Assembly: GCF_002310835.1 (NCBI RefSeq)
Contig: NZ_CP011041.1
Span: 1,560,001-1,592,000, forward strand
Reading direction: 5' to 3'
DNA: 32,000 nt
DNA from: Pseudoalteromonas tetraodonis
GTDB lineage: Bacteria; Pseudomonadota; Gammaproteobacteria; Enterobacterales; Alteromonadaceae
Shown here in pieces: positions 3,810 through 7,850 of the stretch. Position 1 is the stretch's first letter. Each line of letters starts with the position of its first letter. Under the pieces are notes generated by a model. The model did no database searches, was not told where the DNA came from, and was given only the letters and a program-made list of their open reading frames with translations. A program made the translations under genes and the position numbers.

Positions 3810-5522
3810 ATGAAAACATTTACCTTGAGCGCATTAGCATTAGCAATCATGCTAACAGGCTGCCAAAGCGCACCATCATTAAATAACAACACGAATAACA
3901 CCGAAACATCGCAATTAAATACTAAACAACAAGCAAGCCCGTGGTGGGAAAGCGCCATTTTTTACCAAATTTGGCCACGCAGCTTTTACGATAGCGATGC
4001 TGATGGTCATGGCGACTTTAACGGTATGACCCAAAAGCTCCCGTATTTACAAGAGCTCGGCGTAAATGCACTGTGGTTAACCCCCATGTTTGAAGCACCG
4101 TCGTATCATGGCTATGATTTTACTGAATTTTACCAAGTAGAAAACGACTACGGCAGCATGGCCGAGTTTGAAGCCTTTATAAAAGCCGCTGATGATAAAG
4201 GCATGAAAGTCATACTTGATTTAGTTATAAACCATATATCAAGTAACCATGAATGGTTTCAGCGTTCAGCAAAACAAGAAGCCCCTTATGCAGATTACTT
4301 TATTTGGCGCGACGATATGCCAAAAGCCGGAAGTGGTTGGGGGCATGCATGGAGTAATAACGACCAACCCGATGTCGTATGGCATTGGAATGAAACACGC
4401 CAGCAGTATTACTATGGTGCGTTTGGAGCAAGCCAACCTGATTTAAATTTACGCCACCCAGATGTTATTGCTGAAATGGAAAAAATGGCTAAGTTTTGGC
4501 TTGATAAAGGCGTTGCTGGTTTTAGGTTAGACGCAGTTCGCTTTGCCATGGAAAGCGGCGGCAATGCGCAGGCCGACACAGACGAAACCATAGCTTACTG
4601 GCAGCACTTTAATCAGTATGTAAAAAGTGTAAACCCTGAGGCCTATTTAGTCGGTGAAGCCTGGGCAGATATTCCTGTGGCGGCAAAATACTTTGGCGAA
4701 GGTAAAGGGCTTGATCAAGGCTTTGATTTTGAAGTGGGCTATAAAATACTGGGCTTATTAAAACCCGACGCCAGTGGTGAAGCGCAATTTGGCACCATGC
4801 AATCTAATCAACAAGTGAATACAGTTGATGCCAATGTGCTCAAACAAAATTTACAGCAACGTATTGACTCAGTCGCACCGCTTGATTTTTTTGCACCGTT
4901 TTTAACTAACCACGACCAAGAGCGTGTGGCTTATCAACTTGCTGAACACGACGATAAAGCAAAACTTGCTGCCGCTATGTTATTTAGCTCTCCTGGCACG
5001 CCGTATATTTATTACGGTGAAGAGATAGGCTTAACACAAGGTGGCACAGGTCACGATGTGTATAAACGTGCGCCTATGCAATGGGACAACAGCAATCAAG
5101 CCGGTTTTACTCAAGCTCAAACAAGTTGGGTTGAGCAGGCTGAACTGTTTGGTGACAACTACACCCAGTGGTGGCCTGAATTTTTAGCACAGCAAATTAA
5201 TGCTGCTGATCGCAATGTAAAAACGCAACAAGCGCAATCTAATTCAATTTGGCGTTTATATCAGCACTTAATCGCACTAAAAAAACAGCGCCCAGAACTG
5301 GGTATTAAAGGTCGTTATGAATTAACACAGCATAACAACGGCCTTGTCGAAATAACCCGCGAGTTAAACGGCAGTAAAAGTATGTTTGTACTTAACTTAA
5401 CCGCTAACCCGCAAAGCATCAGCGGTATAAAACGTCAGGGGTTAACGCCTAGCTGGCAACACGACCTCAATGGCGAACAACTCGCTGGCTATGGTTTGTT
5501 GTTACTGAATAACACACTATAA
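3810..5522 (+). CDS. GH13 alpha-amylase-family enzyme (oligo-1,6-glucosidase / alpha-glucosidase-like), lipoprotein
   Basis: Lipobox MLTGCQS. GH13 conserved regions are present: DLVINH (I), GFRLDAVRF (II, nucleophile Asp), VGEAW (III, Glu) and FLTNHDQERV (IV). A GAGG RBS is present. Confidence 0.9.
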   Translation: MKTFTLSALALAIMLTGCQSAPSLNNNTNNTETSQLNTKQQASPWWESAIFYQIWPRSFYDSDADGHGDFNGMTQKLPYLQELGVNALWLTPMFEAPSYHGYDFTEFYQVENDYGSMAEFEAFIKAADDKGMKVILDLVINHISSNHEWFQRSAKQEAPYADYFIWRDDMPKAGSGWGHAWSNNDQPDVVWHWNETRQQYYYGAFGASQPDLNLRHPDVIAEMEKMAKFWLDKGVAGFRLDAVRFAMESGGNAQADTDETIAYWQHFNQYVKSVNPEAYLVGEAWADIPVAAKYFGEGKGLDQGFDFEVGYKILGLLKPDASGEAQFGTMQSNQQVNTVDANVLKQNLQQRIDSVAPLDFFAPFLTNHDQERVAYQLAEHDDKAKLAAAMLFSSPGTPYIYYGEEIGLTQGGTGHDVYKRAPMQWDNSNQAGFTQAQTSWVEQAELFGDNYTQWWPEFLAQQINAADRNVKTQQAQSNSIWRLYQHLIALKKQRPELGIKGRYELTQHNNGLVEITRELNGSKSMFVLNLTANPQSISGIKRQGLTPSWQHDLNGEQLAGYGLLLLNNTL

Positions 5523-5608: not shown

Positions 5609-5774
5609 TTAATGAATCATAAGTCGCTTAACTTCTTCTGGCGTCATGGCACTTATCATGAAAATGAATATGAGATGCAATCCACCTCAGGTAGGTGTCC
5701 ACGGTACGTAATGAATACTGATGTACCAACATATATTCAGCAATGTAATTTAAAAATGGGGAACGCGTTTTCAT
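5609..5774 (-). pseudogene. intI: Integron integrase (intI) N-terminal remnant, frameshifted and truncated
   Basis: Minus-strand 5774->5631 reads MKTRSPFLNYIAEYMLVHQYSLRTVDTYLRWIASHIHFHDKCHDARRS*. A shifted frame continues TPEEVKRLMIH* (stop at 5609-5611). The pattern YSLRT..Y..W....I.FH.K.H(P)...EV resembles the N-terminal SAM-like domain of IntI1/IntI4 as I recall them. The catalytic domain is entirely absent. Confidence 0.75.
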
Positions 5775-5988: not shown

Positions 5989-5995
5989 GTTAGGT
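5989..5995 (+). other. attI-like core site (GTTRRRY) at the start of the first cassette
   Basis: GTTAGGT fits GTTRRRY exactly. It lies about 215 bp from the intI start on the cassette side and just before the RBS and ATG of the first cassette ORF. Confidence 0.4.
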
Positions 5996-6017
5996 GTTTC
6001 TCAGGTTTGGAGTTCAA

Positions 6018-6254
6018 ATGGGATTTAAGTTTTGGTTCGTTAGAGCATTAAAAGTATTTCTTGGAGTAGCAGCCTTACTTTTTATAGTTGAGTTGCTTAA
6101 ACAGCACTCAGTTCAAGAAGCATTAATTTTTGCTTGTACTTGGTCATTGATTACAACAGCATTGTTTATATGTTCAAGACTATATCAATCACGTAAAGGT
6201 GTAGAGTGTGCTTTGTGCAATGATATTCCAGACAAAAGTGATAAAAACACCTAA
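6018..6254 (+). CDS. Cassette ORF 1: small two-helix membrane protein, unknown function
   Basis: ATG at 6018 has a GGAG RBS 5 nt upstream (the track's GTG at 5994 lacks one). There are two hydrophobic segments. The TAA stop is fused to the attC TAAC box. Confidence 0.6.
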   Translation: MGFKFWFVRALKVFLGVAALLFIVELLKQHSVQEALIFACTWSLITTALFICSRLYQSRKGVECALCNDIPDKSDKNT

Positions 6255-6349
6255 CAAGAATTTAAAGCGGGACTGCTAACAGTTTGCTCGGTTTCGCTAC
6301 GCTACACATTTTAGCAAACAATTAACAGCCCCTTAAATGGGCGTTATGT
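6249..6349 (+). other. attC recombination site 1 (about 100-bp imperfect palindrome)
   Basis: ACCTAAC (RYYYAAC) ...GTTATGT. The arms pair imperfectly: TAAC/GTTA, ATTTAA/TTAAAT, and GGGACTGCTAACAGTTTGCT against AGCAAACAATTAACAGCCCC with bulges. The overall form resembles Vibrio VCR-type attC sites (TAACAA...GGGACTG...CAGCCCCTTA..GGGCGTTA). Confidence 0.8.
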
Positions 6350-6367
6350 TACTAGATAAGGATATTT

Positions 6368-6634
6368 ATGAAATTAAGCATCGGAGCTTTATTAACACTC
6401 TTTCTAATCTCAGGCTGTACAAGTACATCAATTAAGCCGTTGAAATGGGAATACAAAACTATAAATGTAAATCCATTTAAAAATGGGCTTATTGGTAGAG
6501 AGCTAAGAGAAATCGAAAAGGAATATTCTAATACGCAAAAAGAGCTTCTTTCAAAATATGGTGAAGATGGCTGGGAATTGGTTCATATTGAGGGTAAAAA
6601 CTATATTTTTAAAAGGCCAGTTCAGGTTAATTAA
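6368..6634 (+). CDS. Cassette ORF 2: small lipoprotein, DUF4177-like
   Basis: AAGGA RBS 5 nt upstream. Lipobox LISGCTS. WEYKTI...GEDGWELV resembles the DUF4177 signature as I recall it. Confidence 0.7.
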   Translation: MKLSIGALLTLFLISGCTSTSIKPLKWEYKTINVNPFKNGLIGRELREIEKEYSNTQKELLSKYGEDGWELVHIEGKNYIFKRPVQVN

Positions 6635-6642
6635 GTAACATA

Positions 6643-6647
6643 ACAAG
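6643..6647. repeat. 5-bp direct repeat ACAAG (CTTGT on the transposase strand), junction at the transposase 3' (right) end of the IS
   Basis: Identical pentamers lie at 6643-6647 and 7846-7850 and bracket the IS. CTTGT is the target/duplication reported for IS492 (from memory). Confidence 0.75.
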
Positions 6648-6656
6648 TGACTATGG

Positions 6657-6662
6657 TGTCAA
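6657..6662 (-). promoter_or_regulatory. -35 hexamer TTGACA at the transposase 3' (right) end of the IS, outward-facing half of a junction promoter
   Basis: On the transposase strand the element ends ...GGAATTGACACCATAGTCA, followed by the core CTTGT. Confidence 0.55.
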
Positions 6663-6671
6663 TTCCTAATT

Positions 6672-7625
6672 TTAAACCATTTTAGGATCCCACATGGCAC
6701 CATCCCTCACCATAGAATTTATGATCACTACCAGTTTTCGTATGCACGCAATAATGGCTACCTTTTTAGGCTTTCCTGCTTTGACCATGCGTTGATAAAG
6801 GTCTTTAAATTTAGAGTTGCACTGAATGGCTGACATCATCGCCATGTACATGGCAGTTCTTATTTTAGGTCGGCCGCCACGTATCATTCGCTTACCTTGA
6901 TACACGCCACTTTCACGATTAAATGGGGCTACACCCATTAAAGAAACGGCCTCTTTGTTGTTCACATAACCTAACTCAGGCATATCACTAAGCAAGTTAA
7001 ATGCGACCACATTGCCAACACCTAGCACACTTTGGATAATGGCATTTTTTGCTTTGTATTCGTCTCATTCTTCAATCAGTTTTTGAAGTTTTAAATCGAC
7101 TTTATCTATTTGGTTTTTCAGTGCAGTTAAGATAGGTTTTATGAGTGACGATAGTGTTTTTGGCATTATTTGAGAGCGATTTTTCTCCATCGTTTGCATA
7201 TCCATTAACTGACGTCTTCTCGAGAGTAAATCGCTCATCAAGCGCATTTGCTCTGGCTTTAAAGATGATAAAGGCGGTTTAATCGCTTCACCAAAGTGAG
7301 CAATAAGTTGTGCATCAAGTTTATCCGTTTTTGCTTTTTGGCCGATAGCGCCTGCGAAGCGTTTTATGTTCACGGGATTAGCAATAACGAATGGAATATT
7401 CGCCTCAGCGCAGGCTATGATAAAAGGCTGTTCAAGACGTCCACTTGCCTCAATAGTAACGCGTGTTACTGGGTGTTTTTTTAAGATTTGAATGGCGTGT
7501 TTAATGCCACTTTGATTATTTTCTACAGTAAAGTAAATGTCTAAAGGCCTGATATAAATATCGAGTTGTGTTTTACCTGTATCGACACCGACGTTAATTT
7601 CATTTTGATTATTTATTGTATTCAT
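6672..7625 (-). pseudogene. IS110-family (MooV/IS492-like) DEDD transposase with one in-frame TGA
   Basis: Track ORFs 7065..7625 and 6672..7028 are in the same frame (7625-7028 = 597 = 3 x 199). The read-through sequence is ...KLQKLIEE*DEYKAKNAIIQSVLGVGNVVAFNLLSDMPELG.... The N-terminal part has the IS110-family DEDD-domain pattern, and the C-terminal part has the IS110-family (Transposase_20-like) pattern (helix-hairpin-helix GVG). Confidence 0.85.
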
Positions 7626-7845
7626 AATAAGCTGACTCTGCCTTGCTATTCGGGCTCGAGGCCCCGTTGACTATCCGAGTTTAATGCTTGGAGTTTATAC
7701 AGCGTTCTAACTTGTTACTGGTCTCTCAATAGAGGAGCCTACGCTCAATCGAACTACTGTATAAAAGGCTTTGGTTGCAGCCAAAGCTTGGGCCTCACAT
7801 TACCCGAACTAGGTTAAAGTATTAATTTATGGGTTTATTATCCAT
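7626..7845 (-). ncRNA. Candidate IS110-family bridge/guide RNA in the transposase leader
   Basis: The leader is 220 nt and non-coding, with nested stems: GCTTTGG/CCAAAGC at 7768-7787 and TTTATACAG/CTGTATAAA at 7694-7702 and 7757-7765, extended by GTTC/GAAC. An internal-loop sequence, TAACAAGT, equals the attC target. A second loop sequence, ATAGTCA, equals the last 7 nt of the IS right end. Confidence 0.4.
7837..7842 (-). promoter_or_regulatory. -10 hexamer GATAAT at the upstream (left) end of the IS, second half of the junction promoter
   Basis: On the transposase strand the element starts ATGGATAATAAACCC. In a circle junction with one CTTGT copy the arrangement is TTGACA-17 nt-GATAAT. Confidence 0.55.
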
Positions 7846-7850
7846 ACAAG
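7846..7850. repeat. 5-bp direct repeat ACAAG, junction at the transposase-upstream (left) end of the IS
   Basis: See the repeat at 6643-6647. Confidence 0.75.

Follow-up and report, generated by a model that had tools for sequence, protein, structure and literature searches.

The integrated element and its leader

The stretch of DNA analysed here, 32,000 nucleotides from Pseudoalteromonas tetraodonis (contig NZ_CP011041.1) and hereafter called the window, carries an IS492-like insertion sequence (IS) of the IS110 family, whose 220-nt non-coding leader, located between the left end (7848) and the ATG of the transposase gene (7625), is the subject of this report. A preliminary description of the same DNA had taken this leader for a bridge RNA with separate target and donor loops and had placed the insertion in an integron attC site. 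Comparison with 79 related loci, on which the claim that the matches go beyond chance rests, leads us to predict, with a probability of roughly 0.88, that the leader encodes a canonical bridge RNA of the IS621 kind.

The element lies on the minus strand at 6648-7848 and has a copy of the CT core on each side. Its length of 1,201 bp between the two CT copies follows from the reading of the junctions, which in IS orientation are CTTTAACGA-CT-TGTATGGATAAT for the left junction and CCATAGTCA-CT-TGTTATGTTAC for the right one. The parts of the element are as follows.

6648-7848, minus strand: IS492-like IS110-family element; ends TGTATGGATAAT (left) and TTGACACCATAGTCA (right) common to 60+ relatives
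7849-7850, minus strand: core dinucleotide CT, left junction (direct reading)
6646-6647, minus strand: core dinucleotide CT, right junction (direct reading and relatives)
6672-7625, minus strand: transposase (bridge recombinase) gene, 317 codons plus stop, with an in-frame TGA at 7065-7067 (codon 187)
6648-6654, minus strand: left donor (LD), the right-end terminus ATAGTCA (relatives and direct reading)
7842-7848, minus strand: right donor (RD), the left-end terminus TGTATGG (relatives and direct reading)
6657-6662, minus strand: putative -35 half TTGACA of a circle-junction promoter, from the joined ends
7837-7842, minus strand: putative -10 half GATAAT of the junction promoter, from the joined ends

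The transposase gene starts with the ATG at 7625 and ends with a stop codon at 6672-6674, and only 23 nt separate the stop codon (6672) from the right end (6648). Its product matches the Pfam families DEDD_Tnp_IS110 and Transposase_20 and scores 183.9 bits, at a cut-off of 140, with the NCBIfam model NF033542 "IS110 family RNA-guided transposase". It is 26% identical to the IS621 recombinase over the full length (E = 3e-31), and D15, E59, D101, D104, and S239 are aligned to the catalytic residues D11, E60, D102, D105, and S241 of IS621, the roles of which are taken from published work (PMC11208158). When right end, CT, and left end are joined, the sequence TTGACA-17 nt-GATAAT is formed, and both hexamers are conserved in the relatives.

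Relatives were collected by one scan of a genome collection with the repaired transposase protein, yielding 79 loci of 61-92% identity from Pseudoalteromonas, Colwellia, Vibrio, Shewanella, Agarivorans, Paraglaciecola (about 65% protein identity), metagenome-assembled genomes of Methylococcales, and other hosts. Across these relatives the right end reads TTGAC(A/G)CCATAGTC(A/T/G) and the left end TGTATGGATAAT. The right flank is TGTTA(G/T) in nearly all of them, and TGTTA in 47 of the 54 right-junction entries. Fifty-five distinct leaders could be well aligned (alignment A1; trimmed form, A2), with an almost invariant donor-binding loop (DBL) region. Contigs of about 1.2 kb made of the IS alone are present in many assemblies, which suggests multi-copy elements, and plasmid records related to the element carry only the annotation "IS110 family transposase".

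A conserved and covarying RNA structure

The leader resembles a conserved RNA found ahead of 60+ related transposase genes. Covariance model R1, built from A2, gave 172.9 bits on the window (E = 6e-39), and 11 held-out loci scored 77-195 bits, the match always ending 4 nt before the ATG. The folding that had been suggested for the leader at the outset yields -63.6 kcal/mol, better than its shuffles (z = -3.24; 0/200 as good). RNAalifold and the curated structure of A2 concur in a 5' stem-loop, a long outer stem around an internal loop with an invariant inner hairpin, and a second, two-part outer stem around a second internal loop with a distal hairpin. The curated structure comprises 39 pairs in 6 helices, and 98.7% of its 2,056 cells hold standard pairs. 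Compensatory changes on both sides are found in 17 of the 39 pairs, values that 0/500 shuffles reached, and in controls with slid partners pairing falls to 28-44%. On the window the helices lie as follows, in 5' to 3' order of the predicted RNA.

7629-7789, minus strand: bridge RNA core, predicted by model R1 (5' stem-loop, target-binding loop, donor-binding loop)
7768-7787, minus strand: 5' stem-loop GCUUUGG-CUGCAA-CCAAAGC; 7 pairs, 5 with compensatory changes
7751-7765, minus strand: target-binding loop outer stem, 5' strand UUUAUACAGUAGUUC; pairs with 7694-7707
7720-7739, minus strand: target-binding loop inner hairpin GGCUCCUCUAUUGAGAGACC; 7 pairs, nearly invariant, 99.7% paired
7694-7707, minus strand: target-binding loop outer stem, 3' strand GAACGCUGUAUAAA (RNAalifold and curated structure)
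7677-7689, minus strand: donor-binding loop outer stem, 5' strands AAGC ... ACUC; pair with 7629-7638
7652-7664, minus strand: donor-binding loop distal hairpin GGGC-CUCGA-GCCC; basal pair covaries
7629-7638, minus strand: donor-binding loop outer stem, 3' strands GAGU ... GCUU; end 4 nt before the ATG

The outer stem of the target-binding loop has 13 pairs, 9 of them with compensatory changes and up to 4 pair types. That of the donor-binding loop is 98.6-99.1% paired and shows compensatory changes in loci L017 and L073, and the basal pair of the distal hairpin is C-G, U-A, or U-G in 20, 21, and 11 cases, respectively. Both helices named in the preliminary description, the hairpin GCTTTGG/CCAAAGC at 7768-7787 and the 9-bp stem TTTATACAG/CTGTATAAA at 7757-7765 / 7694-7702 extended by GTTC/GAAC, are present at these positions.

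The 5' stem-loop (7768-7787, minus strand) together with the following CUUUUAU scores as intrinsic-terminator-like, and the U-run occurs only in the subclade of the window. Upstream of this stem-loop, a GUGAGRCCC motif can pair with the 5' arm GGGYCUC of the DBL distal hairpin (window 7792-7800 with 7655-7664; A1 columns 54-61 with 190-199). The R/Y positions covary, being AU in 33 cases, GC in 14, and broken in 8. This long-range pairing, proposed by RNAalifold, was set aside as the weaker alternative (85% paired vs 98% for the local hairpin). In longer transcripts it could provide another fold, in which the donor loop is masked.

Loop segments that follow the flanking DNA

A bridge RNA is expected to carry, in its two internal loops, guides that change with the DNA they read. 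The corresponding segments and their DNA counterparts in the window are listed below.

7740-7748, minus strand: left target guide (LTG) UUGAGCGUA; 5' side of the first internal loop (A1 columns 104-112)
7711-7717, minus strand: right target guide (RTG) UAACAAG, complementary to core and right target CT-TGTTA
7709-7710, minus strand: putative target-loop handshake guide UU; its first U can pair with the terminal A of the right end
7668-7674, minus strand: left donor guide (LDG) AUAGUCA, with the sequence of the 7-nt right-end terminus
7641-7650, minus strand: right donor guide (RDG) AAUAGCAAGG (direct reading)
7851-7859, minus strand: left target (LT) CTTTAACGA, spacer and L'' side of attC no. 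2; this attC continues to about 7958
6641-6645, minus strand: right target (RT), reading TGTTA, within the R'' box of attC no. 2

The RTG is complementary to the RT in 51/54 members, and its core guide is complementary in 54/54. Where it is altered, in L018, L067, L024, and L052, the targets are altered to match (GGTTA, TATTA, TCTTA), the compensated sites reading CTGGTTA, CTTATTA, CTTCTTA, and GTTTGTTA. In 51 elements of the family the core is CT and in 3 it is TT, a difference that the guides follow: the TT-core lineages (L033/L045, L055, L076) have AA instead of AG in the RTG. The right flanks of L005, L042, and L044 do not fit their own RTGs. In L005 (Marinomonas) and L042 (Vibrio) the right junction continues after the core with CTTATGTGGACTCCC... 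in place of TGTTA, which may be the end of another mobile element, and in L044 it lacks TGTTA after the core and reads CTTGCATGG.

It was this segment that had first drawn attention, as RNA-sense TAACAAG(T) at 7710-7717 is identical to the plus strand at 6641-6648. The match is real, TAACAAG being located at 7711-7717 (minus) and 6641-6647 (plus). The first seven bases of the octamer TAACAAGT stand as the RTG; the eighth, T/U, is not a target guide but the putative first handshake base, and its match would be accounted for by handshake pairing with the last right-end base. Chance had been put at about 10% for such a match, close to the 12.5% of leader dinucleotide shuffles that match the 26-nt reconstructed target over at least 8 nt, and with this expectation the 8-nt match is not significant on the window alone. 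The handshake guide is a concept described for IS621 (PMC11208158), and 37/54 family members have a first base here that complements the final right-end base, LD7. In the window, LD7 and LT7 are both A and both can pair with it, and the IS621 work suggests that handshake pairing with the cognate target base is unfavourable (PMC11208158).

The LTG turned out to be the most variable stretch of the leader, and this variation follows the left flank. Over six consecutive positions the covariation diagonal has z = 3.6-6.0, and real pairs of guide and flank agree at 5.48/8 positions compared to 3.72/8 for permuted pairs (z = 10.8; 0/5,000 permutations as high), in a test that allowed both registers occurring in the family. 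Directly upstream of the full left end, L029 and L030 carry fragments of their own left end (CTTGTATGGATAATAAACC, CTTGTAT), which suggests nested or abortive insertions at the left end.

In the donor-binding loop, the identity of RNA-sense ATAGTCA (7668-7674) with the last 7 nt of the right end (6648-6654), already pointed out in the preliminary description, is that of the LDG, and the seventh base of this guide agrees with LD7 in 52/54 members (A/A 16, U/T 35, G/G 1). In the RDG, CAAG pairs with CT-TG and AUA with TAT in the left end, a single G being bulged out; discontiguous pairing of the RDG has already been described for IS621 (PMC11208160). Only its core part can covary because the left end is invariant, and here AAG stands with the CT core in 50 cases and AAA/AAU with the TT core in 3. 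The core dinucleotide is thus represented in both RTG and RDG, and the LTG ends in CU only in a subset with the second register. A shuffle test of the donor match was discarded as invalid, as the leader contains the left end itself.

Taken together, the alignment of relatives that had been proposed as a check shows loop nucleotides covarying with their own flanking targets and ends, and the idea of a bridge RNA with separate target and donor loops is borne out by conserved, covarying structure and by guide-DNA covariation. Two of its arms had been recognized from the start, namely RTG and LDG, both of which covary with DNA; the LTG (7740-7748) and the RDG (7641-7650) had been missed.

The attC-like sites and the integron remnant

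The placement of the insertion in an attC site is likewise supported; the element lies near an integron-integrase fragment, and a candidate R'' box lies at the junction. The fragment is N-terminal, a 48-codon open reading frame (ORF) at 5628-5774 on the minus strand (TIGR02249, E = 2.7e-5), and most of intI must be gone because the fragment directly abuts a glycosidase-like gene (3810-5522). It is followed by two small plus-strand cassettes (5994-6634), encoding an 86-aa membrane-like product and a DUF4177 protein, and each cassette ORF ends at a ..TAACAAG site (6252 and 6641).

About 6252-6350, plus-strand cassettes: putative attC site no. 1
6637-6647 and 7849-7958, plus-strand cassettes: putative attC site no. 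2, split by the IS

The R'' box of attC no. 2 reads ACATAAC on the top strand (6638-6644), directly after the DUF4177 ORF, and its R' box is imperfect. The IS divides this attC between R'' box and spacer and is oriented antiparallel to the cassettes, as insertions of this lineage in chromosomal cassette arrays always are. The target CTTGTTA is the complement of TAACAAG, that is, of the R'' core (..TAAC) plus AAG.

The same context recurs across the family. A TAAC(G/C)(C/G)(C/G) box is found 75-128 nt upstream in 26 of 47 distinct sites compared to 5.5% of background windows (p = 7e-21), and among the reconstructed sites many form imperfect hairpins of 96-128 nt with the pattern TAACGCC...CTTGTTA(G/T)G. 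Hairpins anchored on AAC/GTT have a median energy of -14.0 kcal/mol vs -7.5 kcal/mol at 510 control GTTA sites (p = 9e-8). This anchored folding with control sites and the test of the box signature replaced a strict attC test (R-box complementarity of at least 6/7), which was dropped after it missed the attC of the window itself. The IS strand of the flanks holds 99 further CTTGTTA heptamers, where about 22 would be expected, and the other strand 27; 53 of the 99 have the upstream box, often every 300-600 bp, and these heptamers look like arrays of unoccupied attC targets. Comparison of the reconstructed sites with their own flanks by BLAST found repeats in some loci only, because attC sites differ in sequence.

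Some single loci deserve mention. The chromosome of Pseudocolwellia sp. HL-MZ7 carries three identical IS copies (L010, L011, L012), two of them 5.8 kb apart, in arrays where attC-like CTTGTTA sites recur about every 300 bp and the cassettes are unusually short. In Shewanella waksmanii (L039, 5438-5566), 1.5 kb separate the right side of the IS from an integrase-like stretch that shares 42% identity with the intI fragment of the window and keeps its relative orientation; a search for a full integron integrase beside L039 found this short similar stretch only and no long ORF. A survey of Shewanella integrons has described IS110 elements in cassette arrays and reported none that interrupts attC sites (PMC9229058).

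Comparison with known RNA-guided elements

In its architecture the window element is the same as IS621, in which the RNA is likewise encoded in the left end, upstream of a DEDD/Ser recombinase (PMC11208160, PMC11208158). Shared features of IS621 and the window family include the 5' stem-loop and two internal loops, the CT core, the discontiguous RDG, and a putative handshake base after the RTG. In each of the two loops, the 5' arm carries the top-strand left half-site and the 3' arm is complementary to core and right half-site. The left end of IS621 begins with TGTAT, as does that of the window element, and the RDG region UAUUUGCAAGG resembles CAUUUGCAAGC of the window family. Applied to the E. 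coli IS621 locus, R1 finds a full-length, colinear match at the known position of the bridge RNA (L080, 1878-2050), so that homology at the level of RNA sequence is plausible but marginal. Unlike IS621, the window family targets CTTGTTA at attC sites and not repetitive extragenic palindromic (REP) elements, its RTG is longer (7 nt) and almost fixed, and its LTG occurs in two registers, often without a CU core guide, the LDG being followed by AC/UC.

The IS621 locus used for this comparison has a peculiarity of its own. At 1787-1860 of L080 (E. coli 90-9280) the left end of IS621 is partly duplicated in tandem. The truncated copy ends ...GCCGTATCGGGCCT, which is LTG-encoding DNA, and is followed by TGTATTATCCC, a new left end. 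The arrangement suggests that IS621 landed in the LTG-coding DNA of a second copy, DNA that is bound to resemble the IS621 target.

IS492 of Pseudoalteromonas atlantica, listed in ISfinder under the IS110 family, is about 1.2 kb long, with a transposase of about 318 aa, the target 5'-CTTGTTA-3', and an apparent CTTGT repeat; it forms a circular intermediate with a strong junction promoter, in a marine host of the Alteromonadales. The window element, with 1,201 bp plus CT, 317 aa, a target containing CTTGTTA, and TTGACA-N17-GATAAT across the joined ends, resembles it in these properties.

Guided insertion at attC sites has been described in another branch, the IS1111-attC group (ISKpn4, ISPst6, ISPa25), DEDD elements that insert at one attC end under the guidance of seekRNAs (PMC11187229). 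Like the window element, they combine a DEDD transposase, insertion at an attC end, and a guide from a non-coding region. They differ in having the long non-coding region and the seekRNA downstream of the transposase gene, subterminal inverted repeats, and a reversed order of guide segments; moreover, they have been described mainly in mobile and Pseudomonas integrons, whereas the window family resides in marine chromosomal arrays. With 23 nt after the stop codon and a structured RNA upstream, the window element is ruled out as a member of the IS1111-attC/seekRNA type. A further parallel is ISPpu10, a structure-gated element of the IS110 type, which has a genomic DNA hairpin adjoining its target on the 5' side (bioRxiv 10.64898/2026.03.19.712850). 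The window element resembles it in that, read in IS orientation, the attC hairpin is to the left (5') of the core; the ISPpu10 RNA has been reported without a 5' stem-loop, whereas the window family has a conserved one.

Weighing of the evidence

Several results weigh against a functional bridge RNA of the IS621 kind in this lineage or in this copy. On the IS621 RNA, R1 scores only 14.9 bits (E = 0.034), and a spurious match on the opposite strand reaches 15.7 bits. A search of Rfam 15 over 6000-8500 with E up to 10 returned no matching family, only chance matches to a small nucleolar RNA and a microRNA, Rfam containing no curated bridge RNA family, and a promoter scan of the leader predicted no sigma-70-like promoter for the integrated copy. 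Across the family the LTG uses two pairing registers, and LTG and LDG, the latter followed by AC/UC and not CU, lack the consistent CU core guide of IS621. In the window, the LTG agrees with its own left flank at 4/8 positions, which is the chance level, as 52% of cross-pairs do as well. The recombinase gene has TGA at codon 187, where relative L003 has Cys (TGC/TGT), a one-base change, and this in-frame TGA lies upstream of the catalytic Ser239 and interrupts the reading frame. As to the targets, the family sites are attC-like by our own signature of box and folding and not by a curated attC covariance model, and about 40% of the related insertions lie outside recognizable attC-like hairpins, with CTTGTTA kept.

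Two other explanations of the matches between leader and DNA have to be considered. The leader might act only in cis as a 5' untranslated region (UTR), in transposase translation or in the termination of read-through transcription, so that the DNA matches would be incidental or due to shared ancestry. Such a role would suit the terminator-like 5' stem-loop with CUUUUAU and the 3' strand of the DBL outer stem, which stops 4 nt short of the ATG and might hinder the start of translation, and the 8-mer match of the window taken alone arises in 12.5% of shuffles. What it gives no reason for is that loop bases change with the flanking DNA: the compensated RTG variants, the LTG covariation (z = 10.8), and the agreement of LDG7 with LD7 in 52/54 are what a guide RNA predicts, and we regard a UTR function by itself as highly improbable, though the two roles are not mutually exclusive. 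The other explanation is that the site is chosen mainly by a protein recognizing the folded attC hairpin, the RNA having a minor part. Most sites do lie at a fixed position beside a long imperfect hairpin, ISPpu10 has been reported to depend on a hairpin at the 5' side of its target (bioRxiv 10.64898/2026.03.19.712850), and the window copy was inserted with a chance-level LTG match. Nevertheless, the roughly 40% of sites that have no attC signature keep CTTGTTA, and a change of RTG is accompanied by a change of target, while a structural gate would add to the guides rather than replace them; we therefore consider this explanation unlikely, if less so than that of the UTR. The bridge RNA remains the reading we prefer.

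A question of another kind is whether the bridge-RNA gene of the window still serves an active element. It may be a fossil, correct in itself, in an element that is immobile alone, where the RNA would be functionless unless an intact copy supplied the recombinase, and for this we see the odds as evenly balanced. The stop at codon 187 ahead of Ser239, the misfit of the LTG with its site, and the failure to find a second copy of the element within the 32-kb window speak for it. On the other side, the RNA region scores as high as in intact relatives (172.9 bits), both ends and both promoter halves are intact as well, the one-base change to TGA may have arisen recently or reflect an error of sequencing, and the IS-only contigs of about 1.2 kb in many assemblies suggest multi-copy elements. 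The window copy is probably not autonomous; most likely it is either non-autonomous or was inserted at a half-matching site, and it may be an old, decaying copy. Off-target insertions at half-matching sites have been described for IS621 (bioRxiv 10.64898/2026.08.31.748434).

Proposed mechanism and implications

By analogy with IS621, the element would excise as a circle, and the abutted ends would create the promoter TTGACA-N17-GATAAT, from which the bridge RNA and the recombinase gene could be transcribed. In the complex of recombinase and RNA, the donor loop would then bind the circle junction and the target loop a CTTGTTA target, and strands would be exchanged at the CT core. The variable LTG would adapt each element to the spacer and L'' sequence of the local attC. 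Within the lineage the RTG is almost fixed, and TAACAAG equals the R'' core plus AAG of many marine gammaproteobacterial attC sites; therefore the lineage would land mainly at the R'' end of attC in chromosomal arrays. From this we propose, at about an even chance, that the whole IS492 lineage specializes in the attC R'' end of sedentary chromosomal integrons in marine Gammaproteobacteria (Pseudoalteromonas, Colwellia, Vibrio, Shewanella, Alteromonas, and others), with a nearly fixed RTG that reads the conserved motif TAAC-AAG and a fast-evolving LTG retuned to the attC spacer and L'' sequence of each host, and that the folded attC may act as a structural gate.

Part of this is expected. Bridge RNAs have been predicted for thousands of IS110 elements (PMC11208160), and the NCBI name of protein family NF033542 already includes "RNA-guided". 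The preliminary description overstated its case in holding a guide RNA programmed against attC sites to be new, as it is preceded by the seekRNAs of ISKpn4 and ISPst6 of the IS1111 family (PMC11187229). In the literature searched, we found no report linking IS492-type elements or 5' bridge RNAs to attC, and a family-wide attC specialization of a lineage with 5' bridge RNAs appears to be unreported. The window itself offers an ordinary result, the expected RNA gene in a probably defective IS copy.

For the family, the outcome is a covariation-backed bridge RNA model for the IS492 branch, among the first IS110 elements studied, which explains its CTTGTTA specificity. The excision of IS492 reportedly needs flanking sequence, which the bridge RNA model would explain as well. 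The relatives also provide natural examples of reprogrammed RTG, LTG, core, and LDG positions, and of a 7-nt RTG, that are of interest for engineering. For the hosts, marine chromosomal cassette arrays would be colonized by RNA-guided elements of the IS110 type as well as of the IS1111 type, and an IS inserted at the R'' box should prevent IntI from excising the cassette next to it. If the proposed specialization in attC sites is true, it would explain the long-known IS492 target CTTGTTA and would mean that RNA-guided parasitism of attC arose a second time, independently of the IS1111-attC seekRNA elements.

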